A stretch of 64,000 bases of DNA, taken from the NCBI GenBank assembly GCA_020637195.1, contig JACJWK010000002.1:2299-66298 (forward strand). Reading direction: 5' to 3'. This document shows positions 2,383 to 61,705 of this stretch, in pieces (the first letter of the stretch is position 1; each line of letters opens with the position of its first letter). A model generated the notes under the pieces. That model had not been told where the DNA came from. It ran no database searches and worked only from the letters and a program-made list of their open reading frames with translations. This stretch comes from Microthrixaceae bacterium (lineage in GTDB: Bacteria > Actinomycetota > Acidimicrobiia > Acidimicrobiales > DATDAH01). The position numbers and the translations under genes are program-made.

Positions 2383-3245
2383 CAGTCCACCTCCGGCGTC
2401 GGCGGGAAGAGGGCGTCGCGCTCGGCCCGCAGCCGCTCGCAGTCCCACGAGCGGTCGACCGGGATCAACAGGATGGGGCTCTTGGCGGGGTCGGGGTACT
2501 GGGTCCACTGGCCGCCGGTCTCGAAGGCCGGGTCGGACGCGCCGATCACGAGCTGCTCGGAGTCGTCGTCGACCGTGCCGGTGAGTGACCCGTCGTCCTG
2601 CCGCTGCGCCTCGTAGGCGAAGATCTCCCGGCGGGCCAGGTAGATCTCGCCGCTGAGCTCGGGGGTCACGGTGATGGTGGCGGTGACCCCGGGGTTGCCG
2701 TCGCCGTCGTCGTCGGCGATGCGCGGGTCGTCCGGGTCGGTGGGCAGCGGGTCGTTCGCGGGGTCCTCCAGGCGGACGCCGATGCCGGTCGGCGTCGCCG
2801 GGCGGGAGACGTGGAGCACGCCGTCCTCCTCGGTCACCGTCACCGCCACCGGGACCGGGCGGATGGCCTGGGTGGCGGCGTCGGAGAACTCGACGCTGAT
2901 CGGCTGGTCGCTGCGGTGCTCGGAGAAGCAGAAGGAGTCGTCCGAGATGATCTCGCCGTCGACGAGGTCGTAGTCGGTGAAGCCGTACGAGATGATCAGG
3001 GTCTTCATGTCGTCCCCCTCGTAGGCGACGACGTCGTAGTGGGCGTAGCGGCCGGGCAGGTCCTCGGCGCCCGCGGGCAGGGCGGCGCCCGTCGTGGTGG
3101 TCGACGCGTCGCCGGTCGCCGACGAGTCGCCGGTCGCCGACGAGTCGCCGTCGTCGCTCCCGCACGCCGGGGCGACGAGGGCCAGCGCGAGCAGCGCCGC
3201 CGCGGTGGCCCGGCGGTGGCGGGGCGATCGTGCGGCGCCGCTCAT
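2379..3245 (-). CDS. exported lipoprotein, unknown function
   Basis: ATG 3245 (ATGA overlap with the stop of the upstream dioxygenase). Signal/lipobox MSGAARSPRHRRATAAALLALALVAPAC. Low-complexity linker (GDSSAT)x2, an acidic DDDGDGNPG stretch, and 2 Cys in the mature part. Confidence 0.7.
   Translation of the reverse strand: MSGAARSPRHRRATAAALLALALVAPACGSDDGDSSATGDSSATGDASTTTTGAALPAGAEDLPGRYAHYDVVAYEGDDMKTLIISYGFTDYDLVDGEIISDDSFCFSEHRSDQPISVEFSDAATQAIRPVPVAVTVTEEDGVLHVSRPATPTGIGVRLEDPANDPLPTDPDDPRIADDDGDGNPGVTATITVTPELSGEIYLARREIFAYEAQRQDDGSLTGTVDDDSEQLVIGASDPAFETGGQWTQYPDPAKSPILLIPVDRSWDCERLRAERDALFPPTPEVDW
3111..3146. repeat. 18-bp tandem duplication (GCCGGTCGCCGACGAGTC x2) inside the lipoprotein linker
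   Basis: Two perfect adjacent copies read directly from the sequence. They encode GDSSAT-GDSSAT on the minus strand. Confidence 0.9.
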
Positions 3246-4696
3246 GCCACGGCCTCCGGGAACCAGTTGGCGTGGAAGCCGAACGGCACGCGCCTCGGCA
3301 GGTGCACCCGAGCCACCGGTCCGGCGGCGAGGTCGCGGGCGTCGAGGACGACGAGGTCGGTGGCGTCGCGGTCGTCGTCGTACACGACGTTGAGCAGCCA
3401 GCCGTCGTCCTCGGCCGAGCCGCCCGGGTCGGCCGCGAAGACGCTCTCGCCGACGTGCCCGTGGGGGCCGGCGCTCCACACCGTCCGCTCGCCGGTGGCG
3501 TCGTCGTACTTGACGACGGCATCGAAGTCGCCGAGGTGCCGGTCGCGCCGGGTGAAGCCGGACAGGTACAGGTGGCGGACCGCCACGCCGTCGTAGGCGG
3601 GGTTGATGCGGTTGAAGTCGCCCTCCATGTCGTCCATGGGCTCCCAGCCGGCGGTGCCGGCGGCCAGGTCCACCCAGAAGCGGGCGGGCCGGGCGAAGTG
3701 GTCCTTGGCCGACCGGTCGCCGAGGGGCGTGGTGTTGTCGATGCCGAAGTCGGGGTCCTGGTAGCGACAGCCGTGGAACTCGATGCGGTCGCCGTCGGCC
3801 CAGCCCGACCAGAAGTGCTGCACGTGGCCGGGCTCGACGTCGAACCAGCGCAGCTCGTCGGCGGTGCCCCGCCGGGGCATCACGCCGATGCGGGCCCCCC
3901 GCTCGGGCATCCAGCGCACCATCGGCCCGTTGCCCAGGTTGGCGATGTCGAACACGAAGGGGGAGTCGAGGAAGACCGCGTGGTGCTCGGTCATCACCAT
4001 GTCGTGCATCATCACCGGTGCGGGCAGGTCGATGTCCACGCTGTGGGACAGGGTGCCGTCGGCGTCGACCACGTGGTAGCGCAGGTACGGCTCGAACAGC
4101 GAGTAGCCGAACATGAGCATCTCGCCGGTGCGGGGGTCGAGGCGGGGGTGCGCGGTCATGGCGCCCCGCAGGCGGCCGCCGAAGTCGTACTCGCCGACCG
4201 TGTCGAGCGAGGGGGTGACCTCGGTGGGGAGGCCACCCTCCCAGAGGGCGAGGCGGCGCCCGCCGTGCTCGATGACGTGGGTGTTGGCCGGGTTCTTGAC
4301 CGGCCCCGCGTCCCCGGTGAGGTCCCGGCTGGGGAAGTCCATCACCTCGCCGAGGCCCGGGTAGATCGCCGCCCCGTGGGCCAGCTCGGCGCCGAGGCCA
4401 CGCGACCGGATCCAGCGGTTGCGGTACGACACGCGCCCGTCGCCCCCGAAGGTGACGGCGTGGAGCATGCCGTCGCCGTCGAGCGCGCTGTAGCGGCCGA
4501 TGGGCTCGAAGGCGGGGTTGGGGCCGTTGCGGACGAAGCTCCCCCGCAGCCCCGCCGGCAGCTCGCCCGACACCGCGCAGTCGGGGGCGTCGAGCTCGTC
4601 GGCCACGGGGAAGCGGTTGCCCCGGAGGTCGGGTTGGTCGTCGGGGTTGGTGACGTGGCCGGTGACGGGCCCCGTGGCGGTGGTCGGGCTGGACAT
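3242..4696 (-). CDS. carotenoid/stilbene cleavage oxygenase family (RPE65/CCO/LSD-like) dioxygenase
   Basis: 484 aa starting at ATG 4696 (MSSPTTATG...). Four-His iron-ligand contexts are present: NTHVIEH, MTAHPRLD, MMHDMVMTE, FGFHANWF. The 926-aa ORF 3242-6022 is this gene plus an upstream wrong-frame extension. Confidence 0.9.
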   Translation of the reverse strand: MSSPTTATGPVTGHVTNPDDQPDLRGNRFPVADELDAPDCAVSGELPAGLRGSFVRNGPNPAFEPIGRYSALDGDGMLHAVTFGGDGRVSYRNRWIRSRGLGAELAHGAAIYPGLGEVMDFPSRDLTGDAGPVKNPANTHVIEHGGRRLALWEGGLPTEVTPSLDTVGEYDFGGRLRGAMTAHPRLDPRTGEMLMFGYSLFEPYLRYHVVDADGTLSHSVDIDLPAPVMMHDMVMTEHHAVFLDSPFVFDIANLGNGPMVRWMPERGARIGVMPRRGTADELRWFDVEPGHVQHFWSGWADGDRIEFHGCRYQDPDFGIDNTTPLGDRSAKDHFARPARFWVDLAAGTAGWEPMDDMEGDFNRINPAYDGVAVRHLYLSGFTRRDRHLGDFDAVVKYDDATGERTVWSAGPHGHVGESVFAADPGGSAEDDGWLLNVVYDDDRDATDLVVLDARDLAAGPVARVHLPRRVPFGFHANWFPEAVA

Positions 4697-4740
4697 GGTC
4701 GGGTGGGGCTCCCTCGGTGGGGCGACAGGGGTGGGCGGGG

Positions 4741-5952
4741 TCAGGCGCGCTCGACGTACCCGTCGAGCGCGGGGGAGACCCGGAGCTCGGCGGGGACCTC
4801 GTCGCCGATGGCGAGGTCGACGGCGCGGTGGAAGTGGTGGATCAGCCGCTCGTGCCAGCCGATCTGGAACGGCCGCGCCCCGCGGGACTCGACCGACCGC
4901 TGGATGCCGCCCATGTTGGCGGTGTCCTGGGCCATCACGGTCTCGAAGAGGGTCATGCGCAGCGTGTTCTCCTCGGGCGTGTCCCCGTCGCCCCAGTCGG
5001 GCGCGAACCACACCAGCTCCAGCTCGGTGGTGCGACGGTCGAGCGGCCACATGCACAGCAGGGGGAACGCCCCGGTGTCGAGCGGCGCCACGATGTTGGG
5101 GAACCACCCGAACGACGTGCTGGTCTCGCGCCAGAGCGCCCCGACCGACGGGTTGTCCGCCGCGGGCGACGGGTCCATCACGCCGAGGAGCTCGGGCTTG
5201 ACCGCGACCGAGAGCCGGCTGTGCCCGTTCGGGAGCATCGCCACGGTCGCGGTGGTGTCGTCGTAGAGCAGCGCGGCGTTGTCGGGGTGCACGGTGCGGA
5301 TGTGGTACACCTCGAGGAAGGCGTCGACCATGGCCTTCCAGTTGGCCGGGACCACGTGGCTCTGCGTGCCGATCTTGCGCAGCGAGGGCCCGTTCACCTC
5401 GAGCATCTGCTCGCACAGCGGGCCGAGGAACTCCACGAGGGGCGCGGCGTCGGGGTCCTCGTTGACGAACACCCAGCCCTCCCACACCTCGCAGCGGACC
5501 GGCACGAGGCCGAGCGCGTCGAGCTCGAGCCCCGCGAAGCTGCGGGCGTCGGGGACCGCCTTGAGGTGGCCGTCGAGCCCGTACGACCAGGAGTGGTACT
5601 GGCAGGTCAGGCGCTTGGCGGTGCCGCAGTCGTCGCGCACGACGGGCGCGCCACGGTGACGGCAGCTGTTGTAGAAGGCCCGGACCTCGCCGTCCTCGCC
5701 CGACACGACGACGATCGGTGCCCCCGACCGCTCGAAGGTGACGTACGCACCGGGCTCGGTCAGCTCGGACGTGTGGGCGGCGTACAGCCACGTCCGCCGC
5801 CACAGGTGCTCGCCCTCGAGGGCGAAGAGCCGCTCGTCGTGGTAGCGGCCGGCCGGGAGGGGCGGGACGGGGACGGCGTCGGGGGGCGGCGCGGTGCGGT
5901 CGCGGTTCTCGACCAGCTCCCGGCGGATCGTGGCTTCGAGGGTGGCGTCCAT
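4741..5952 (-). CDS. Rieske (2Fe-2S) aromatic ring-hydroxylating/demethylating oxygenase, alpha subunit
   Basis: Rieske motif CRHRG...CQYHSW and mononuclear-iron motif NWKAMVDAFLEVYHIRTVH. No beta subunit or reductase is adjacent. Confidence 0.9.
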   Translation of the reverse strand: MDATLEATIRRELVENRDRTAPPPDAVPVPPLPAGRYHDERLFALEGEHLWRRTWLYAAHTSELTEPGAYVTFERSGAPIVVVSGEDGEVRAFYNSCRHRGAPVVRDDCGTAKRLTCQYHSWSYGLDGHLKAVPDARSFAGLELDALGLVPVRCEVWEGWVFVNEDPDAAPLVEFLGPLCEQMLEVNGPSLRKIGTQSHVVPANWKAMVDAFLEVYHIRTVHPDNAALLYDDTTATVAMLPNGHSRLSVAVKPELLGVMDPSPAADNPSVGALWRETSTSFGWFPNIVAPLDTGAFPLLCMWPLDRRTTELELVWFAPDWGDGDTPEENTLRMTLFETVMAQDTANMGGIQRSVESRGARPFQIGWHERLIHHFHRAVDLAIGDEVPAELRVSPALDGYVERA

Positions 5953-43846: not shown

Positions 43847-44575
43847 GTGGCCGAGCGCGACCTCTACCTGCACGAGGTGATCGACATCGTCGGGCAGGGC
43901 CAGTACGAGTACATGGCCCACGCCGCCCGCGAGCCGACGAACGCGATGCCCGACATGCTCACGCTCCAGGGCACGTTCTTCGTGTGCGCCGTCGGCGGTG
44001 GGCGCTGGCCCCAGGTCGTCAACCTCTGGGACGTGGGCGAGGCCGGCTGGGACGGCTGGGCCGCCAACGTCGACCGCCTCAACCTGAAGCGGCGCGCGGC
44101 CTTCTACGGGGACTGGTGGGACGAGGCCGCCCAGTGGCGCACCGGCGGACTCGACCGGCTGTGCGGCGGCGTGGCGGGCAGCCCGACGACCGCGTCGCTC
44201 GCCGCCGCCGGGGTGCGGGGCACGCTGTTCGTGCACCAGCTGCTGACGGTGCGCCCGGGCGCGGCCCTCGACTACCTCGACGCCGTCGTCGCCGAGCAGG
44301 TGCCCGTGTGGCGTGACCACGGCCACGAGCCGACCGGGATCTACGAGGTGCTCTCCAACCAGCACGAGGTCGTGGTGGTCTGGGCGACCTCGATCGCGGC
44401 GCAGACCGGGTTGCGGCGGTCCCGTGACGCGCCCGGGGGCTCCTGTCCGGCCAGGCGGGTGCGCCTGAGGGCGACGAGCGCCTCGTGGCCTGGGAGCGCA
44501 CCGCCGCCGAGTACGTCACCGGCGGCGACACTCCACCCCATGACCCCATGCCCGGCACCGCTCCATAGCCCCTGA
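43847..44575 (+). CDS. hypothetical protein (possibly NIPSNAP/dimeric alpha-beta-barrel-like); 3' end appears frame-disturbed
   Basis: TACGGT box 6 nt before GTG 43847. The sequence is protein-like up to about aa 190 (...VVVVWATS...). After that the called frame becomes Arg/Ser/Pro-rich, while another frame reads ...GDERLVAWERTAAEYVTGG... Confidence 0.5.
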   Translation: MAERDLYLHEVIDIVGQGQYEYMAHAAREPTNAMPDMLTLQGTFFVCAVGGGRWPQVVNLWDVGEAGWDGWAANVDRLNLKRRAAFYGDWWDEAAQWRTGGLDRLCGGVAGSPTTASLAAAGVRGTLFVHQLLTVRPGAALDYLDAVVAEQVPVWRDHGHEPTGIYEVLSNQHEVVVVWATSIAAQTGLRRSRDAPGGSCPARRVRLRATSASWPGSAPPPSTSPAATLHPMTPCPAPLHSP

Positions 44576-44626
44576 CGACTGGGAAGAGGCCGACCTCGCC
44601 GACTGGCTCGGGTGAGGCAGCGGACA

Positions 44627-44674
44627 CGTTCTGGCTCCCCGATTTCGGTGCCAGGGCACCGAAATCGGAGCCAG
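44627..44674. repeat. palindromic element copy 1 (core GATTTCGGTGCC-AG-GGCACCGAAATC at 44641-44666)
   Basis: Read directly from the sequence. The 26-nt core is identical to 54446-54471. Outer arms CTGGCTCC/GGAGCCAG extend the stem. Confidence 0.9.
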
Positions 44675-44799
44675 TCCGGTGGACGGTGACGGATCGGTCG
44701 GGCCGGTTCCGGCCGACGGCACCGCAGGCGCCGCCGACGAGCAGGGGCTGGCGGTCGGCGTCGTCCTGGGGCCGTGGTTGCGCGCGCCGGTGCCGGTCG

Positions 44800-45474
44800 C
44801 CGGAGGCCGCCGACCGCGCCGGCGTGGCAGCAGTACCGGACGATGTAGGCCTTGCGGACCGTGCCGGTGGTGTTGACCCGGGTGGCGTGGGGCTGGTTGA
44901 CGAGAACACCACGACGTCGCCGGCGCTCGTGGGCACGTCGACCGCGGTGTCGTGGTCACCCCAGCACTCGAAGCCGATCGGCGTGTCGGCGTGGGCGAGG
45001 GGCCGCTGTCGCGGTGGGCGCCGGCGGCATGACCGACACGCAGCCGTTCTCGGGGTGGCGTCGGTGAGCGACACCCAGAAGGTCAGGTACGCCTGGGGCC
45101 TCGATGAACGTGTAGCTGTCCTGGTGCCACAGCACCGGCTCGGCGCCGTGGGGCACCTTGTAGACGGCCTGCTCCCAGTAGAGGCGCACGTCGTCGCCCA
45201 TGAGGTCCCGGCAGACCCCGGCGAGGACCGGGCTGCGGCAGAACGCCTTGGCGGCCCCGGAGCGCAGCACGACGTGCGGCGCGACCACCTGGGTGTCGAG
45301 CCCGGCGACCGAGAGGCGCCCGCCCTCCACCTGCTCGAGCAGCCCGGCGACGAGCTCGACCGCCTCGTCGCACGCCGCCTCGACCGGGGCCAGCTCGTCG
45401 GGGGTGAAGGCGCCCCGCAGCACGAAGAAGCCGTCCCGGTCGAACTGCCGGCGCTGCTCGTCGGTGATCGTCAT
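44800..45474 (-). pseudogene. phytanoyl-CoA dioxygenase (PhyH)-family Fe(II)/2OG oxygenase, multiply frameshifted
   Basis: ATG 45474 (MTITDEQRRQFDRDGFFVLRG...WHQDSYTF). The rest is readable only by hopping between all three frames: YLTFWVSLTDATP / ENGCVSVMP / GAHRDSGP / LAHADTPIGFECWGDHDTAVDVPTSAGDVVVFSS / ...HATRVNTTGTVRKAYIVRY. The 3' end is undefined. Confidence 0.75.
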
Positions 45475-45789
45475 CGGCGCCCGGTCGGGCAGCGCCCACG
45501 TGAACCCGTCGTTCCACCGATGGGGCGCTCGCTCCCGGGCCACGCGGTCACCGTAGCGACCCGGCGGCGGTGCTCATGGGTGCGGATGGTCGGCCTGCCG
45601 ACGGTGACGACCTGAGCACCAGCGCCGCTGGGCGGCGACCCTGGCCAAGGTCATGATGTGGGGGTACGTTGCGCTGACCGGCGTCGATCGTCGAACCTTC
45701 GATCGCCGCACGGCTCGAAGCCCGGTGCTTCCGCGAGGCCCCCGACCCGGGAGGCCCGCTCGTCCGACCTGACGAGAAGGAGGCACGAC

Positions 45790-52988: not shown

Positions 52989-55012
52989 GCGGCGTCGGCG
53001 GCGGGCTCGGTTCCGGCGGGGAGGGCGGGCGGAGCAAGTCGCTCAAGGTAGCGGCGGGTCGGGCCCGATCGGGACATGCCCGAGAGACACCGACCTTCCG
53101 CTCGGCGGGGCTCGGCATGGGTCAGGGGCGTCGCCGGCGGCGAGGGCGTCGGTGAGGCCGCTGGCCCGGGCGACGGGCGGGCGACGGCGGCCCGCACCGC
53201 GTCCTCGGTGCCGAGCACGGTGAGCCGGTGCTGCGCCCTCGTGACCGCGGTGTAGAGCAGCTCGCGGGTCAGCACCGGCGACGGCGGCCGGGGAGGCGCA
53301 CGACGACGTGGCCGAACTGCGAGCCCTGCGCCTTGTGGATGGTGATGGCGTACAGGAGTCGACCGCGGCCAGCCGCGTGGGCCGGACGAGCAGCGGCTCG
53401 CCCCGGCGCTCAGGCACGGCCTGGAGGCGCCCGCCGCCGACGTCGACGACCACCCCGGTGTCGCCGTTGAACACGCCGAGGCGTAGTCGTTCTCGGTCAC
53501 GATCAGCGGCCGGCCCGGGTACCAGGCGCCGGCGCCGTAGCCCGGGATCGTCGAGCGCAGCCAGCGCTCGATCGCCAGCCGCCACCTGGCGGCACCGGCC
53601 GGCCTGCGGCGGTGGGCGCAGAGCACCTGGACCTCGCTCAGGGCGGTGAGCGCACCCGGCGTCACCGGCCGAGGCGGCGGCGCGACCACCGAGCGGGCGG
53701 TGTCGACCGCACCGCACGGCGCGGAGCTCCGGGGCGGTGGTGGGGTCGGCGTCCGCCGACCTCCGCCACGTGACGTCGTCGCCGGCGGTCGCAGGGCGTC
53801 GACCACCGCGTCGGCGTCCCCCGACTCGATCGCGGCGGCGACGGTGGCGATGCCCCCGCCGAAGCGGTGCACGCGGCGCAGCTCGACGATGCCGGGCAGC
53901 GGCGACGCCACGATGTCGCCGAGGACGGCACCCGCCTCGACCGGGCGAGCTGGCGAGGTCGCCGACGAGGACCAGGCGGGCGGTGGGGCGCACCGCGTCG
54001 AGCAGGCGGGCCATGAGCGAGAGCCCGACCATCGAGCACTCGTCGACGATCACCACGTTGTGCGGGAGCTGGTTCGCCCGGTCGTGGCGGAAGCGGCTGC
54101 GGTGGTCGGGCCGCCATCCGAGCAGGCGGTGCAGCGTGGAGGTGGGCGTCGCCAACAGCGCGCCCGGACGGCCTCGCCGGTGTCAGGCGGCGGGCCTCCG
54201 CCTGCACCGCCTCGCCCAGGCGGGCGGCGCCTTGCCCGTCGGCGGCCAGTGCCACCCGGGGTGGTGGCTGACCGAGGGCGGCGGCCTGCTCGTGGAGCAG
54301 CGCCAGCAGGCGCGACCGTCGTGGTCTTGCCGGTGCCGGCCCGCCGGCGACCACCGAGAAGCGGCGCTCGACCGCGGTCGCCGCCGCGACCCGCTGCCGG
54401 TCGTCCTCCCCGCCCGAGATCGGCGTCCACCCTCCAACGGCTCCCGATTTCGGTGCCAGGGCACCGAAATCAGGGCCAGAACGGACGAGGAAGAGGCGGT
54501 CAGGCCGTCAGCCAGCGCAGCAGTGTCGACGGTGGGGCGGCCCGCCGGCGGGCGAGCAGGTCGGCGGTGATGGCCCGCTCGTGGCGCCAGTAGCGGTCGA
54601 GGTACAGGCGCGTGCGGCGAGGCGCAGCGGGCGGTCGTGGGCCCGCCGCCGCCCACCGCGGTGAGCGGGTGGGTGGCCCGCGGCGACCCAGGCGTCGGGG
54701 TCGGGCCAGGCGAGGGCGGCGACGTCGACGGCGACCTCCTCGTCCTCGGGGGCGATGGTGGTCGGCGCGGTGGCCAGGTCGGCGAAGACGTGGCCGGGCG
54801 CACGGCCCGCACGGCGAGCGCCGCGGCGGGCGACCTGTCCGTCGGGGTCCGAGCGCCGCCGGCAGGTCGGTGAGCGCCAGCGACGCGCACGTCGGCGGCG
54901 GCGAGGACGGTGGCGTCGCCCAGGGCCTGCGGAGCCCGGCGCCCACGGTGGGTCGCCGCCCGGCGTGGAGGTCGACGCCGCCGGCCGGCGTCGGCGGGGT
55001 CGCGGCGGTCAC
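52985..55012 (-). pseudogene. recD: RecD (exodeoxyribonuclease V alpha) gene, multiply frameshifted
   Basis: GTG 55012 forms a GTGA overlap with the recB stop. Motifs are scattered over three frames: RLYLDRYW, VVAGGP/GTGKTTTV/RLLALL, TLHRLLG, VVIVDECSMV, LVLVGD, VQVLCAHR, RLGVFNGDTGVV, YAITIHKAQGSQF, LLYTAVTRAQHRL. The 3' end could be 52985 or 53043. Confidence 0.8.
54439..54483. repeat. palindromic element copy 2 (core at 54446-54471), inside recD
   Basis: Identical 26-nt core GATTTCGGTGCC-AG-GGCACCGAAATC. The right outer arm AGGGCCAGAACG mirrors the left arm CGTTCTGGCTCC of copy 1. Confidence 0.9.
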
Positions 55013-58000
55013 AGGGCGCCCCGGTCGAGAGGTCGGAGAGGTCGGTGACGAAGGCCACCGGCGGCTGCCAGGTGAACACCCGGCGGGGCGCCGCCGACCC
55101 GCGGGGTGTCGGGGCCCACCATGCCCCGCAGGAACAGGTACGCCACGCCGCCGAGGTGGCGGCCCGGGTCGTACGCGGGGAGGCGCCACCGCAGGAACCG
55201 GTGCAGGCCACGCGTAGAGCGCCGCCTGCAGCGGTAGTGGGCGTCGGCCATGGCGGCGAGCGCCTCGGGACGGTAGTGGGCGGTCAAGCCGACCTCGCCG
55301 TGGGGCACCAGGTGGTTGGTCTTGTAGTCGACCACCACGTGGCGGGCGTCGCCCCCGGGCCCGTCGGCGAGGCGGGCGACGAGGTCGATCGAGCCGGAGA
55401 GGAAGCCTCGGACCTCGGCGGTGAGCAGCGGGTCGCAGAGGCGCTCGTGGTAGCCGGCCAGCGGGTCGCCGGCGGGCAGGCCCGCGAACACGTCGGCGAC
55501 GGCGGCCATGGTGACGAGCCGGTCGTGGGGCGGTCGCCGCCGGCGAGGGGCAGGTCGAAGGCGAGCTCGTCGAGTCGGTCGTGGCGGGTGAGGTCGCACA
55601 GGCGCGTCGTCCCAGGCCTCGCCCACGGCGTCCGCAGCGCCTGGGCGACGCCCGCGACCAGCGGGCTCGTGGCCCTCGACCAACCGTGGCGCACCGGCCT
55701 CGGTCGCCGCGACCAGCTCGGCGTCGAGGTCGGCGGCGGCGAAGTCGATCTGCTCCGAGCACCTCGTGCACGAGGGTGCCGACGCAGGCGCCGCGGGGAC
55801 GTCGGCGAGCGGTAGGCGCAGGGCCTCGGCGTCGGCGGCGGCGCCCTGACTCGAGCCAGGGCTCGTCGACCGTGGCCGCCTCCTCGCGCTCGGCGTCGGC
55901 GGCCGCCACTGGTGCCCTCGCCGCCCAGGTCACGCCCCAGGTCGACGTCGAGGCGGGGGCCGGTCTCGTGGGCCTCCCGCGTGAGGCCGCTGTAGGACGT
56001 CCGCACCCAGCAGCGGTCGAAGCCGCGATCGAAGCGGGCCACGGACAGGGCCGCCGCGTCGAGCGCCGGAGGGTCGTAGCGCTCGCCCGTCGCCCCCGTG
56101 GCCTCGACGGTGGGCAGCAGCCGGGCGGTGAGCTCGACGGTGATCTCGTCCTCGGTGGGCACGTGGTCGAGGCACCGGGCGACCGCTCCGGTGGCCGGGT
56201 CGGCGGCGAGCAGCACCCGGGCCAGCGGTGAGCGGTCGCTGTCGGAGGCGCTCGCCCACCAGGCGACCACGCGGTGGCGGGCCCGGGTCAGGGCCACGTA
56301 GAGCAGGCGCAGCTCCTCCTGGTCGCGCTCGTCCTCGGCGCGGTCGAGTTGCCAGCGGCGCAGGTCGCCGCCGCCGCCGACGCTGAGCGCCCGGTGGCCG
56401 TCGGTGTCGTGGAAGGTGCACACGTCGTCGTCGTCCTGGCGGCGGGCGTCCCAGAGGCTGGGCAGGAGCACGATCGGGAACTCGAGGCCCTTCGCGCTGT
56501 GGATCGTGTGCACGGCGACCGCGTCGGCATCGGTCTCCAGGCGCCGCCGGGCCGACTCGGCGCCGGACTCGGCGCCCGGCTCGGCGGCCGCGGCGCGCTG
56601 CTCCGCCACCCAGCCCGAGAGCGCGGTCAGCGACGACGGATGGTCGGCCTGGCGGGCGTGCAGCAGCTCGGCCAGGTGGCGCAGGTCGCTCAACAGGCGG
56701 TCGCCGCCGACCGTGCCCAGCAGCCGCTCGCTGAGGCGCGTGCCGGCTTCGACGCGTCGCAGCACGCCGGCCACCGTGTGGGCCCGCGCCGTGGCGGCCC
56801 AGTCGTGCAGGAGGGCGTCGAGCGCCTCCCAGTCGGCCTCGCGGGCGGCTGCCAGGCGCGCGGCGTCCCAGCCCACGAAGGGGCCGATGGCCACCGCGCG
56901 CACCCGGGCGGGGCGGGCCGGCTGCTCCAGCGCGTCGAGCAGCTCGCCCCAGTGGCGGGCGGCGTCGGTGCGCCACACGCTGCCGGCGCCGTGGACGACC
57001 GCGGGCACCCCGACGCCGTGCAGCGCGTCGCGGGACACGGTGGCCTCGTGGTGCGTGCGGGTCAGCACGGCCAGGTCGCCCGGCCCCACCGGTCGGCCGT
57101 CGAGGGTGCTCCCGCTGTTGAGCAGGCGCACGGCCTCGGCCGCGAGGTCCTCGGCGAGGAAGGCCCGCACGGCGCCCTTCGCGGCGACCCGGGTCCTCTT
57201 GGTCAGGGCGAACCGCCCGCTGTCGTTGCGGGCCACCTTGACGAGCAGCGGCGGCCCGGCGGCGGGACCGTCGAGGCCGGGGCCCTCGGCCCCGGGCCGG
57301 GCCTGGACCGGTCGGTGGCGGATGGCTTCGTCGCCGAGCTGGGCACCGGCGAGCACGGCGTCGAGCGCGGTCAGCAGCGGCCGGTCGGCCCGCCAACTCG
57401 TCGACAGGCCGCTCCGGTGGTCGGCGCGCCGGGTGGCGGCGAGGTAGGCGTGCACGTCGCCGCCGCGGAAGGCGTAGATCGCCTGCTTGGGATCGCCGAC
57501 GAGCACGAGCCGGCAGGGCGGCTCCCCGAAGGCCCGCTCGAGGATCCGCCACTGGATGGTGTCGGTGTCCTGGAACTCGTCGACCACCGCCATCGAGAAG
57601 CGGGCCCGCAGGCGCTCGGCCACGATGTCGCCGCGGCGACCCTCGGCCAGGCTGGCGTCGAGGCGGTCGAGCAGGTCGTCGTAGGTGAGGAGCCGACCCT
57701 CGCGCTTCTGGTCGGCGATGCGGGCCCGCACGGCGCGGGCGAAGGCGCGCCGCTGGCGATCGACGGGGTGGTCGTCCACGGGGGCGATGGCGCAGTCGGG
57801 GTGCTCGACCACCGCCCGGGCGATGGCGGCGGCCGTGCCCGGCTCGAAGTGGATCTCGTCGCCGGCCAGGACCCGGCGCACGTAGAGGTCGCGGACGGCG
57901 TCGTCGACGAGGTCCCGCACGTCCTCGACGAGCTCGACGTCGCGCTCGGCGTCGCCGGCCACTCCGAGCCCGGCCAGCACCTGCTGGCAGAAGCCGTGGG

Positions 58001-58373
58001 TGGTGGCGATCGTCGCGGCGTCGAAGTCGGACAGGGCCACCCGCAGGTTGCGCCGGCGGACCGCGCGCTCGTCCTCGGTGCCCCGGCCCAGGTGGGCGAG
58101 CAGGGGGTCGAGGCCGGTCTCCACCGGCGGCGCGCCGGGCGCCAGCGCCTCCGCGGCCTGGGCCAGGCGCTGCCACACCCGCTCGCGCAGCTCGCCGGTG
58201 GCCTTGCGGGTGAACGTGACGACGAGCAGCTCGTCGAGGGGACGCCCCTCGGCGACCTCGGCCACCACGAGGGACGCCACCGCGTGGGTCTTGCCCGTGC
58301 CGGCGCTGGCCTCGAGCACGGTGACGCCCTCGGCCACGGGCGTCGTCGGGTCGAACTCCACCATCGCGGTCAC
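55009..58373 (-). pseudogene. recB: RecB (exodeoxyribonuclease V beta); helicase part intact, C-terminal nuclease part multiply frameshifted
   Basis: GTG 58373 (GTGA overlap with the recC stop). One frame is intact down to about 55925: LEASAGTGKTH, VVDEFQDTD, LVGDPKQAIYAFRG, TIHSAKGLEFP, LLYVALTRAR. The nuclease motifs are readable only by frame hopping: GTLVHEVL, GSIDLV...VVVDYKTN, HYPLQAALYA. The GTG-to-TGA span is 3365 nt, not a multiple of 3. Confidence 0.85.
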
Positions 58374-61300
58374 GACGCCGCCCACCGCCGGTGGGCGTCC
58401 AGCGCCGGCGTCCACACCTCGCGGGCGAGCACGGCGAACCGGGGATCGGTGATCACGTCGTCGAAGGGCCGCACGCCGCCGTACAGGAGCACGTGCTCGG
58501 CGTCGTGGCCCTCGCCGGGGCGGTGGAAGTCGCCGTCCCACTCCCTGGCCGCGGCCGCGCCCGGGTCCTCGTCGCCCTCTCGCTGGCGGGTGAGCCAGGC
58601 GTGGGACGTCTTCGAGGCGAGCGGGACCGGGCCACAGAGGACCTCGTCGCGCAGGGCCACGAGCGCGGCCAGGTGGCCGACGGCCTGCTCGGCGGTGATG
58701 GGTGGGAGCCCGAACCGGCGCGACCTCCCGCCCCAGCGGGCCACCAGCACCGAGGTCAGGCCGCCGTCGGTGGCGGCGCTCGCGGCCAGGTGGCGCACCC
58801 ACGTCGCCAGCTGCCGCTTCGCCGACATCGAGGAGAACGTGACCGGGCGGATGGTGGCGGCTCCGGCGAACACGTCGGCGACGGTGCCCACCAGGTGTCG
58901 GCCGTCGGGGAGCGCCACGTCGACCTCGATCGAACCCGGTCGCCCGTCGGCGACCTCGCGGGCGCTGTCGGCGAGGCGCTCGGCCTTCTGCCGGGCATCG
59001 GCCAGGACCCGCTCGCCGAGCAACCCGGGCGGCAGCTGGCCGCGGGCACGCTCGGCCGCGACCACGACGTCCGGGTCGGCGCCGGCGAGCAGGGCGTCGA
59101 GGAGGCGCCGGCCCACCTGCCACCGGCTCAGGCCGTCGAGCTCGAGCGCGAGGGCGTCGGCGTGGCGGTCGTCGTCGTCGAAGAGGCCGAGCCCGAGCCG
59201 CTGGCGCAGGAAGGCCCGGGCCGGGTGGTCGACGGCGGCCACGAGCGCCGCGAGCTCGATGACGCCCTCGTCCACCACGGGCGGCAGTGGGACGTGGGGG
59301 TCGAGGAAGGGTGCCGGCGGCGCGGGCGGTCGGGCGGCGGCCTCGGCGCCGGCGAGGAGGCGGTCGTCGAAGCTCCACGGGCCGTCGGTGCCGAGCGCGC
59401 CCGGCTCGAAGCTGCGTCGGTCCGCGGGCTGCAGCGGATGGTGGCGGACGACCTGGTGGCGGGCCAGGCGGCCGTCGGCGGTGACGGCGGTGTCGTCGAG
59501 CACGTCGAGCAGCTCGTTGACCGGCACCGCCGGCGGCAGGGGCTCGTTGGTGCGCGGGTCGTGCCCGTCGTAGGTGACGACGAGGTGGTCGCCGGCGGCG
59601 AGGACGGCGTCGAGCAGCAGCTGGCGGTCCTCGGCGCGGCGGTCGTGGTCGCCGGGGTGGCGGGCGGCCACGAGCAGGTCGTCGCCGTCGGGTGCGCCGC
59701 CGCGGGGGAAGGCACCGTCGTCGAGGCCGACGAGGCACACGACCCGGTGGGGCACCGAGCGCATCGGCACGAGGGTGCACATGGTCATCTCGCCCGTGCG
59801 GAAGGCGGCGCGGCTGGGGCGACCCTTCAGGCGGTCGGCCAGCAGGTCCCGGAGCTCGGCCAGGCGCAGCGGCGTGGCGCGGGAGCCGTCACCGTCGTCG
59901 CCGCCGGCCTCCTGGACGACCTCGGCGAGGAGCTGGTCGAGCTGGCTGCGCTGCCACGCGTCCTCCCAGCGGGTGTCCAGGAGCTGGTCGGCGGCGGCGT
60001 CCAGCGCGTGGACCCAGGCGGCGACGGGCCGGGGGTCGCGAAGCGAGCGCACCGCGCCGCCGAGGCGGCCGACGAGCTCGGCGAAGCGGCCGGCCAGGTC
60101 GATGTCGCCCGAGTCGACGTCGTCGAGGGGGAGCACGCCGCCCACGAGGCGCAGCTCGTCCTCGGACATGGCCACGCCCAGGAGCACCCGCCGCAGCCCG
60201 GCGGCCCAGGTGCCGGTGTCGACCGCCGCGAGGTCGTAGGGGGCGCGGTGGTCGCCGTCGAGGCCCCAGCGGGTGCCGGTCTGGTCGACCCAGCGGGCCA
60301 GGCGCTCGAGGTCGTCCTCGTCGAAGCCGAAGCGCTGGCGCACCGGGGGCAGGGCGGCGAACGCGAGCACCTGGGTGGCGGTGAGGCGGGCGTCGACCAG
60401 CGCGAGCAGCTCGGCCACGGCGCCGAGGACCGGGTTGGTCTGGCGGAGCGAGCGGTCGGCCAGCCGGTGGGGGATGGCGCGGGGGTGGTCGGGCTCGTCG
60501 TCGAAGGCCGCCCGGAGGAGCGGTGCCAGGTCGTCGATGTCCGGGCACATGACCACCACGTCGCGCGGCTCGAGGGTGGGGTCGTCGGCGAGGAGGTGGG
60601 TGATCGCGTCGCGGAGCACCTCGGCCTGGCGGGCCCGTCCGTGGCAGGCGTGCACCTGGACCGACCGGTCACCGGGGTCGAGCCGTGCCCGGTCGTCCGG
60701 GTCGGTGGGGGGCGGCTCGTCGGCCCGGATGGCGGCCTGGAGGCGGCGCAGCAGGGTGGGCCTCGCCGGGTCGTCGTCGGGGAGCGGGTGGTGGCGGTCC
60801 TCGGTGGTGGCGTGCGGCGCCACGGCCAGCCGGCGCCGCAGGACGACGCCCATCTCGTGGCTGTCGCGCCCCCAGGCCCGCAGCAGGGGGTGGCGCAGCG
60901 CGACCTGGTCGCCGGTGCCCCAGCTCGCCGGCGACGGGTGCAGGGCCAGCACGTGGACGTCGCGGTGCGCCGCGAGCGCCTCGAGCACGTCGAGGTAGCT
61001 GGCGGGCAGTCGGGTGAGCCCGAACAGGAACAGGCGCTCGGGGAGGTCGCCGGCGAGGTCGCGGTCGGCGGCCAGCGCCGCGCAGCCGGCGGCGGTGCGC
61101 TCGGCCGGGCTGGGCTGGTCGACCGCGGCCCGGAGGCGCCGCCACAGCTCGGCCTGCCAGGCCACGTGGGGGTCGAGCGCCTGTCCGTCGCCGTCTTCGT
61201 CCCTGCCCTGGTGCCAGGCCCGGACCATGGCCGGTCGGTGCACGGCGTAGCGGTCGTAGAGGTCGGCGAGGTGGCGGACCGCGGCGAAGCGGCGGTCCCG

Positions 61301-61705
61301 GCGGGCCAGGTCGTCCTCGGCGCCGGCGCCGGCGCCGAGGTGGCCGGCGAGGACGAAGAGCCAGTCCTCGTCGAGGCAGGCGTCGACCACGTCGAGCAGC
61401 GGCCAGGCCAGGCGCTCGGGGCGCCACGGGTCGGTGTCGGGGTCGACGCCGGTGACCGTGGCGAGGGCGGACTGCACGAGGCGGCCGGGGAAGGGGAACT
61501 CCAGGTTCGCGCACACGCCGTCGGCCCGGCCGGGGCTGGTGCCCAGGTGGGCGGACAGGCGGTGGGCCAGCCACCGCTCGACGCCCCGGGAGTGGACGGC
61601 GACGACCTCGCGGGTGAACGGGTCGGCCGGCGGGACGGCCAGCTCGGCGGCCAGGACCTCGGCGAGCACATCGGCGCGCTCCGCTCGGTGGAGGACGAGG
61701 GTCAT
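58370..61705 (-). CDS. recC: RecC (exodeoxyribonuclease V gamma)
   Basis: Uninterrupted 1111 codons from ATG 61705 (MTLVLHRAERADVLAEVLAAEL...FTREVVAVHSRGVERWL). It is first in a recC-recB-recD order, as in other actinobacteria. Confidence 0.85.
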   Translation of the reverse strand: MTLVLHRAERADVLAEVLAAELAVPPADPFTREVVAVHSRGVERWLAHRLSAHLGTSPGRADGVCANLEFPFPGRLVQSALATVTGVDPDTDPWRPERLAWPLLDVVDACLDEDWLFVLAGHLGAGAGAEDDLARRDRRFAAVRHLADLYDRYAVHRPAMVRAWHQGRDEDGDGQALDPHVAWQAELWRRLRAAVDQPSPAERTAAGCAALAADRDLAGDLPERLFLFGLTRLPASYLDVLEALAAHRDVHVLALHPSPASWGTGDQVALRHPLLRAWGRDSHEMGVVLRRRLAVAPHATTEDRHHPLPDDDPARPTLLRRLQAAIRADEPPPTDPDDRARLDPGDRSVQVHACHGRARQAEVLRDAITHLLADDPTLEPRDVVVMCPDIDDLAPLLRAAFDDEPDHPRAIPHRLADRSLRQTNPVLGAVAELLALVDARLTATQVLAFAALPPVRQRFGFDEDDLERLARWVDQTGTRWGLDGDHRAPYDLAAVDTGTWAAGLRRVLLGVAMSEDELRLVGGVLPLDDVDSGDIDLAGRFAELVGRLGGAVRSLRDPRPVAAWVHALDAAADQLLDTRWEDAWQRSQLDQLLAEVVQEAGGDDGDGSRATPLRLAELRDLLADRLKGRPSRAAFRTGEMTMCTLVPMRSVPHRVVCLVGLDDGAFPRGGAPDGDDLLVAARHPGDHDRRAEDRQLLLDAVLAAGDHLVVTYDGHDPRTNEPLPPAVPVNELLDVLDDTAVTADGRLARHQVVRHHPLQPADRRSFEPGALGTDGPWSFDDRLLAGAEAAARPPAPPAPFLDPHVPLPPVVDEGVIELAALVAAVDHPARAFLRQRLGLGLFDDDDRHADALALELDGLSRWQVGRRLLDALLAGADPDVVVAAERARGQLPPGLLGERVLADARQKAERLADSAREVADGRPGSIEVDVALPDGRHLVGTVADVFAGAATIRPVTFSSMSAKRQLATWVRHLAASAATDGGLTSVLVARWGGRSRRFGLPPITAEQAVGHLAALVALRDEVLCGPVPLASKTSHAWLTRQREGDEDPGAAAAREWDGDFHRPGEGHDAEHVLLYGGVRPFDDVITDPRFAVLAREVWTPALDAHRRWAAS

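Follow-up and report, generated by a model that had tools for sequence, protein, structure and literature searches.

How does a hairpin-forming palindrome come to lie inside a protein-coding gene, and how does the gene take it? The question is raised by a stretch of 64,000 nucleotides from a Microthrixaceae bacterium (contig JACJWK010000002.1, positions 2,299 to 66,298; hereafter, the window), in which such an element occupies positions 54439-54478, within recD, the gene for the exodeoxyribonuclease V alpha subunit (53119-55012, minus strand). A sequence-only reading of the window had noticed this element and another copy of it, and had proposed the in-frame insertion of a small palindromic element into a tolerant linker. 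Our analysis showed the element to be one copy of a dispersed repeat of about 42 bp found in Acidimicrobiales, lying here inside the recD linker instead of its usual place after a stop codon. We consider it likely that the recD copy arose by transposition-like insertion of the dispersed palindrome, that it is tolerated and translated in a disordered linker, and that the frame breaks in the recD gene of the window are sequence errors.

The palindrome in recD and its family

The element in recD (copy 2; no strand is assigned) consists, on the plus strand, of a left arm, GGCTCCCGATTTCGGTGCC (54439-54457), an AG centre (54458-54459) and a right arm, GGCACCGAAATCAGGGCCA (54460-54478). The palindrome had been placed at 54439-54483, and its position, arms and core were confirmed. 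The arms are complementary at 93% of positions over the inner 15 nt, while their outer part contains one mismatch and one missing base, so that the hairpin, described earlier as having a 20-bp stem, is real but has a defective stem of about 18 bp. Relative to the family consensus, this copy lacks the T that begins the TGGC end, and CCTG replaces CCCG in one arm. Copy 2 is followed by GAAC (54479-54482; GTTC on the recD strand), which is the direct repeat that family members typically have and that resembles a target-site duplication, and preceded by CAAC (54435-54438; GTTG on the recD strand), an imperfect partner of the former. The window contains the 26-nt core, GATTTCGGTGCCAGGGCACCGAAATC, exactly two times, once in copy 1 (44632-44673), at 44641-44666, and once in copy 2, at 54446-54471; 100 shuffled sequences gave no match, and 0 are expected by chance. 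RNA of the recD strand folds at -42.3 kcal/mol (z = -5.4 against shuffled sequence), and in both window copies the fold is much more stable than in shuffled sequence (z about -5).

On the minus strand, one frame through copy 2 reads RLFLVRSGPDFGALAPKSGAVGGWTPISGGEDDRQRVAAATAVERRFSVVAGGP, as had been written before. This frame, in the linker that leads from the N-terminal domain to Walker A, is open only locally, at about 54330-54507. The segments RLYLDRYWRHE, upstream, and GTGKTTT, downstream, are in other frames in the window.

The family was collected by a scan for the core's 20 specified bases in a single genome of each species. The scan matched 74 loci, all but one from five Acidimicrobiales metagenome-assembled genomes (MAGs) that contain about 27, 33, 9, 7 and 1 exact-core copies. 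Alignment of the copies by eye gave a 42-bp consensus, TGGCTCCCGATTTCGGTGCC-NN-GGCACCGAAATCGGGAGCCA, i.e., two 20-nt inverted arms around a 2-nt centre, with ends TGGC...GCCA. Several sub-types were distinguished. The arms of sub-type 1a contain ...GGCTCCCGAT... and those of sub-type 1b ...GGCACCGGAT..., with both arms changed and pairing kept. An asymmetric sub-type is present in an Iamiaceae MAG. In type 2 the outer 11 nt are unchanged, with an inner part that is different yet palindromic (TCGACCGCT..AGCGGTCGA). In a further sub-type (TGGCGCCCGATC.TGT.G...; L003 7771-7894, L004 1181-1232) the outer ends are kept and the inner part is barely palindromic; locus L003 contains two such copies 72 nt apart. 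Another Actinomycetota MAG has a different, longer palindrome (GATCAGCGCTCGGACTTTTCGGTGCCCTGGCACCGAAAAGTCCGAGCGCTGATC; L052 3546-3607), which has only its 22-nt centre in common with the family.

Outside the TG...CA ends, most copies have direct 4-nt flanks: GTTC/GTTC in 26 cases, GAAC/GAAC in 22 and GAAC/GTTC in none. Flanks of the GTTC...GAAC kind belong almost entirely to the Iamiaceae sub-type, all copies of which have them. Duplication of a 4-bp GTTC target would give such direct flanks; single-strand insertion beside a tetranucleotide would give an identical pattern, and the two are indistinguishable here.

The usual position of the repeat is just beyond a gene. Of 78 copies, 65 lie 10-45 nt (median 20) past the stop codon of an open reading frame (ORF) with high third-position G+C content (GC3), 20 of them between two convergent gene ends. 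Besides recD, a single sampled genome copy out of 78, in L034, is in coding sequence, and it is in frame. This copy (about 1011-1060) lies in the linker between the ketosynthase and acyltransferase (KS-AT) domains of a 1369-residue polyketide-synthase-like ORF (...TQTVPAPDFGARAPKSGASSEEP...). Among 83 copies in L001-L082, the upstream flank is C-rich and the downstream flank G-rich, whatever the GTTC/GAAC orientation. Insertion into the loop of a pre-existing GC hairpin or terminator was considered and rejected: flank complementarity was 3.57 of 10, compared to 4.00 +/- 0.17 for permuted pairs.

The element has no match in Rfam, and a literature search found no description of the family in Acidimicrobiia. 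A promoter and terminator scan of 54200-54700 returned 0 sites. The hairpin is not followed by a T-run, and the element does not qualify as an intrinsic (Rho-independent) terminator: the hairpin is present, the U-tract is missing and the downstream flank of the consensus is G-rich. A profile of the encoded peptide, which has low power for a motif of 15 residues, matched only three tiny ORFs in a set of 5.8 billion proteins and, with the same low power, four more ORFs in a representative library, the latter running over extragenic copies.

Insertion into the RecD linker and the state of the gene

The repaired RecD of the window, used as a query, retrieved 7999 homologues, the best of which were 77-79% identical and came from Acidimicrobiales MAGs. 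Sixty RecD orthologues were aligned at the protein level and the DNA of eight was compared. In this alignment the linker between RLFP and DDxQR is highly variable in length. Fifteen residues, VLAPDFGA[L/R]APKSGA, and the 45 nt encoding them are present in P0001 and P0002 (linker VLAPDFGARAPKSGA) and in P0005 and P0008 (linker VLAPDFGALAPKSGA); P0013, P0014 and P0016 have a diverged form, VLAPDS..AVESGA or VLAPDLPAIAVQSGA. Altogether, seven related lineages with an intact RecD ORF carry a palindrome at the same linker site. None of the element-encoded residues is found in any other aligned RecD, be it one of the nearest relatives (P0003, P0004, P0006, P0007, P0009-P0012 and P0015) or a more distant one. 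At the DNA level, the full palindrome with GTTC flanks is present in each carrier, and nothing corresponds to it in P0004 or P0006. The P0004 site is empty though its genome (CAZYPY01) has about 33 copies elsewhere.

The expectations that followed from the earlier proposal were borne out: about 15 residues and 45 nt are present in some lineages and missing from their nearest relatives, the borders of the element have 4-nt direct repeats resembling target-site duplications, and no orthologue has the residues without the palindrome. A RecD tree splits the carriers among three clades, each of which also has relatives with an empty site. Since the window falls beside P0001 and P0002 and has the same flanks as they do, its copy is an orthologue of those two copies. 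The sequence of P0008 minus exactly 45 nt equals P0006, P0007 is without 31 residues that include the element, and P0010 retains a PAVL remnant at the left junction. These patterns show signs of secondary loss by deletion. A weight matrix built from 33 perfect-duplication sites ranked the empty P0006 linker only 18th to 41st in its 22-kb locus and gave nothing in P0004, which, if anything, speaks against a target-motif hotspot in the recD linker.

The consensus element, as read, has no stop codon in any of its three frames, and read-through therefore never ends within it. In the recD frame it specifies a small, polar peptide rich in Pro, Gly and Ala; a RecD tryptic peptide covering this stretch would span ...VLAPDFGALAPK. 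In an AlphaFold (AF2) model of P0001 (mean predicted local distance difference test score, pLDDT, 86.4; predicted template modelling score 0.86), just two segments, residues 1-13 and 185-209, have a pLDDT below 50, and the second includes the residues specified by the element, V185-A199. The encoded residues are thus predicted to lie in the sole internal loop that is disordered, which joins the N-terminal domain to helicase motif I, and the alignment and the predicted structure agree with the earlier placement of the element in a variable linker there. The site maps between residues 147 and 154 of E. coli RecD, where E. coli has six residues compared to 31 in P0001. Insertion and linker thus stand as proposed. 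Being in frame, on the other hand, is not a property of the element: 42 nt and a 4-nt duplication make 46 nt, which shifts the frame, and the recD of the window needs about 28 repairs.

The events may be pictured as follows. The element would have inserted, in a transposition-like manner, at a GTTC target in recD. The gene could have survived for three reasons: no frame of the element contains a stop codon, the linker tolerates extra disordered residues, and the +46-nt shift would have been corrected by a small neighbouring indel. The insertion would be old, being common to the window, P0001 and P0002, and would have been lost again in other lineages via in-frame deletions of various sizes.

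The reading frame of recD in the window itself is broken, and the element could accordingly be just one lesion among many in a true pseudogene comprising recD and the 3' end of recB. The window has a G+C content of 73-78%, and GC3 periodicity shows the majority of its genes to be long and intact. Between 53000 and 55950, around copy 2, the coding phase switches every 100-300 nt, and alignment with the related locus L075 revealed 59 indels of lengths not divisible by three, nearly all of them 1-2-nt deletions. A frameshift-aware alignment of P0001 RecD with window DNA contained 28 frameshifts, and there are more in the C-terminal part of recB, with in-frame stops after the shifts, as a pseudogene would have. 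Yet 27 of the 28 events are 1-2-nt deletions in the window, whereas natural decay would bring substitutions and varied indel sizes. Once the shifts are bridged, the DNA aligns to P0001 residues 1-649 with 86% amino acid identity, on par with intact neighbours (recC, a DEAD-box helicase and an F420-dependent enzyme), which are 87-92% identical to the same relative. Every helicase motif is kept, and GC3 is at least 0.9 within each fragment. The lesions end abruptly at 53000 and 55950, a similar patch surrounds the other repeat copy, and the element is found in intact recD genes elsewhere. We therefore regard a pseudogene as very unlikely.

The frameshifts of window recD are instead probably local sequence or consensus errors, not gene decay, as the many tiny indels, the lack of extra substitutions and the sharp patches on the two copies suggest. 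The nucleotide alignment of the window with L075 has 84.5% identity over 11 kb and, outside 53000-55950, few indels of lengths not divisible by three, located near gene boundaries. The second, smaller patch covers 44430-45116. Both patches are sharply bounded and each is centred on one palindrome copy, the rest of the window consisting of long intact genes. Consensus or gap-fill errors set off by the repeat or by very high G+C content are the probable source.

That the gene is recD is supported by the score of P0001 (468.8 bits, compared to a TIGR01447 cut-off of 310) and by its RecD_N domain and SF1 helicase motifs. The gene order recC-recB-recD is common to the window and L075-L082. In the window, recB (55029-58367, minus strand) is intact down to about 55900, its C-terminal nuclease part being frameshifted, and recC (58373-61705, minus strand) is intact and 87% identical to its L075 orthologue.

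Maintenance and mobilisation of the palindrome

Several points weigh against insertion followed by mere tolerance. A simple 46-nt insertion would frameshift recD, and the compensating change is one that we only infer; the function of the window's own recD cannot be demonstrated. About 0.6 Mb of related loci yielded neither an autonomous partner nor a transposase whose ends match. The recD copies are identical at 50 of 50 nt between P0001 and P0002 and between P0005 and P0008. The three RecD clades have three different sub-types at the same linker. Finally, the stem contains compensated changes, which implies that more than passive carriage maintains the palindrome.

A rival reading is that the recD copy is kept for a function: located in the last gene of the recCBD operon, an RNA or DNA hairpin of about -50 kcal/mol could act as an attenuator or regulator of RecD synthesis, or an association of the repeat with recBCD could be adaptive for repeat or host. 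The identical copies belong to recD genes that are only 86% (P0001/P0002) and 91% (P0005/P0008) identical, with third positions at 72% and 81%, and the linker flanks beside them are only about 50% identical. The element has thus stayed perfectly conserved while its flanks and the synonymous sites of the gene diverged. Throughout clade C the outer stem does not vary, and a stable hairpin is predicted in every orthologue. P0013 (L093) and P0014 (L081) share the site and its flanks; their outer stems differ by two compensated base-pair flips (T:A to A:T and C:G to G:C), at positions 5 and 8 of both arms, exactly the difference between sub-types 1a and 1b. Among the seven recD copies, 91% of stem cells are paired and 7 of 23 pairs have double changes, a covariation score reached by none of 500 shuffles. 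The occupation of one linker by three sub-types and the published concentration of intragenic repetitive extragenic palindromic sequences (REPs) in recBCD and uvr genes (PMC3733652) point the same way.

Intergenic orthologous copies, however, are equally conserved and show the same switching between sub-types. Copy 1 lies at the 3' end of a PhyH-like dioxygenase gene (44727-45543, minus strand), between GTTC (44628-44631) and GTCC (44674-44677). Its orthologue in L075 (19978-20021, or 19974-20025 with flanks) is located 19 nt past a stop codon; the arms are 1a-like in the window and 1b in L075. Since this extragenic site shows the same conservation and sub-type switch, the maintaining force looks family-wide rather than recD-specific. 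In roughly half of the close relatives the element has been lost while recD is intact, there is neither a U-tract terminator nor an Rfam match, and the covariation could arise from independent insertions of different sub-types. Retention for function is, in our judgement, unlikely. The three sub-types at one linker fit either repeated insertion or homogenisation, and gene conversion, within-hairpin correction, re-insertion or selection are all possible means of palindrome upkeep.

The 3' half of the PhyH-like gene is frameshifted. In the window, as in the related ORF P0125, the reading frame enters copy 1 and continues across it, again in the frame encoding ...LAPDFGALAPKSGA; on the minus strand copy 1 translates as ...GSDFGALAPKSG..., in agreement with the sequence-only reading.

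What could have moved such an element? In about 0.6 Mb of related loci there were no solo arms besides those in L016, where a segment encoding IstA and IstB (2504-5331) begins and ends as TGGCTCCTGATTTCGGTGCT...AGCACCGAAATCAGGAGCCA and has GAAC at either side. The family could on this ground be a terminal-repeat-only MITE (miniature inverted-repeat transposable element) derived from this IS21-family insertion sequence (IS), which has the same 20-nt arms at both ends. Related IS copies in L091 and L092 (IstA 81-83% identical), however, end with TGTCGGCGGCC.../TGTCAACGGCC... and are without the arms, and the IS of L091 has a duplication of its own, TACAC. In L016 the TGTC ends do not coincide with the arms; they lie 24 nt further in, with CTGGAG, a 6-bp duplication, on either side. 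Taking out the IS and one CTGGAG restores a palindrome of 42 bp, and this agrees at 49 of 50 nt with the orthologous copy in L033 (2503-2550), which has no interruption. The ends inside the arms, the CTGGAG duplication and the L033 match together identify the L016 IS21 as a nested insertion in the centre of the palindrome. Descent of the family from it has almost no credibility left, the 2.8-kb IstA/IstB element being ruled out as a parent by the true IS ends and the L033 palindrome empty of it. The nested IS itself conforms to the IS21 family: a DDE transposase (IstA), an AAA+ helper (IstB), TG...CA ends and a duplication in the 4-8-bp range. IstB scores 212.5 bits (cut-off 200), the full-length IstA scores 140.7, below its cut-off of 160, the Pfam domains are rve, Mu-transpos_C_2 and IstB_IS21, and the ends are TGTC...GACA. 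The site occupied by the L016 IS21 is the same site as in L083-L090.

Another candidate is movement as single-stranded DNA, as for REPs and their hairpin-forming doublets, REPINs, by a REP-associated tyrosine transposase (RAYT) or an enzyme of the IS200/IS605 type, GTTC being the cleavage or target tetranucleotide. Size, palindromy, extragenic position downstream of genes and cross-species conservation are REP-like (PMC3733652), within each arm there is a further small palindrome (CACCG-GATTT-CGGTG in sub-type 1b), and insertion 3' of a tetranucleotide would yield the same GTTC...GTTC pattern. A GTAG or CGTC tag, however, is missing from both ends, and a Y1-transposase gene was seen beside none of the copies, no systematic PF01797 search of the loci having been made. 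We consider this origin distinctly improbable.

Four kinds of gene are flanked by two copies: short-chain dehydrogenase/reductase (SDR), acyl-CoA dehydrogenase, Fpg/Nei glycosylase and DUF559, the last with a Vsr-like endonuclease fold. The DUF559 gene has copies on both sides at the orthologous loci in L016 (5319-6233) and L033 (about 1600-2514) and, in a different context, in L012 (about 375-1268); in L061 (6136-7022) a copy is adjacent. This recalls RAYT genes lying between REPs, but ordinary genes are flanked too, and DUF559 is only a lead. In a Microthrixaceae MAG, an IS1182/IS5-like transposase gene (DUF772, DDE_Tnp_1_6; L076 11997-13514) lies between recD and the DEAD-box helicase gene; its ends, TTCTGGTCACGGAAACGG...CCGTTTCCGTGACCAGAA, have only TTCTGG in common with the palindrome.

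Comparison with known systems

Insertion into a tolerant linker, our preferred reading of the recD copy, makes this locus a clear case, in a third distant phylum, of palindromic selfish repeats translated inside essential-type genes, and one that comes with filled and empty orthologous sites, loss remnants and a structural rationale. The published and still unexplained recurrence of such repeats in recBCD is repeated here in Actinomycetota. The palindromes in recD might even be non-accidental, reflecting a cross-phylum interaction of hairpin-forming selfish repeats with an enzyme that processes DNA ends and hairpins, such that the repeat tunes RecD dosage or activity or that RecBCD genes are preferred or protected targets. 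Three sub-types in the same linker, compensated palindromes amid a decaying linker and unrelated REPs in proteobacterial recBCD and uvr genes lead to this idea, which we hold to be very improbable. The family offers many natural presence/absence pairs with which to weigh chance against target preference and function. In high-GC MAGs it probably also gives rise to local errors of assembly and consensus and to ORF calls that extend too far.

Bacterial MITEs such as Correia, Nezha and ERIC are small and non-coding, with terminal inverted repeats, short direct flanks and occasional in-frame fusion to ORFs (PMC10969869). The element resembles them in being small, non-coding and multi-copy, with terminal inverted repeats and short flanking direct repeats. 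It is shorter than typical MITEs, consisting only of two 20-nt arms and a 2-nt centre. Of four MITE hallmarks it thus has three, namely, inverted-repeat structure, target-site duplication and many copies; the fourth, an autonomous IS with matching ends, was not found in about 0.6 Mb of loci.

A GTAG or CGTC tag marks REPs, many of which are associated with RAYT transposases; they lie mostly downstream of ORFs, with an intragenic minority concentrated in replication and repair genes, including recBCD and uvr (Di Nocera et al. 2013, PMC3733652). In Xanthomonas recB, different REPs are found at about the same site (PMC3733652), a parallel to three sub-types at one recD linker. The element shares with intragenic REPs its short length and its location mostly 3' of ORFs, the extragenic downstream position being that of 65 of 78 copies (20 convergent). 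Like REPINs it joins two inverted half-sites into one long hairpin, is conserved at orthologous sites across species and forms a long-lived resident family. It differs in its TGGC...GCCA ends, its direct GTTC/GAAC flanks and its phylum; the GTAG/CGTC tetranucleotide tag is absent, and neither a RAYT nor another associated tyrosine transposase was identified beside the copies.

In behaviour the element also resembles Rickettsia palindromic elements (RPEs; Ogata et al. 2000, 2002), palindromic repeats whose hallmark is to be present in frame in genes (reviewed in PMC10969869). RPEs are about 100-150 bp long, frequent in ORFs (44 in R. conorii) and alphaproteobacterial (PMC10969869). The element in recD is, in contrast, 42 bp long, overwhelmingly extragenic, has flanks resembling target-site duplications and an unrelated sequence, and belongs to high-GC Acidimicrobiales. 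Selfish repeats in repair genes are already known from other bacteria, and by sequence this family falls outside both RPEs (RPE-1 to RPE-10 of Rickettsia) and REPs. It nevertheless works like an RPE: a dispersed palindrome, present in some orthologues and absent from others, is read through in a coding gene and adds a peptide to a protein that is not destroyed.

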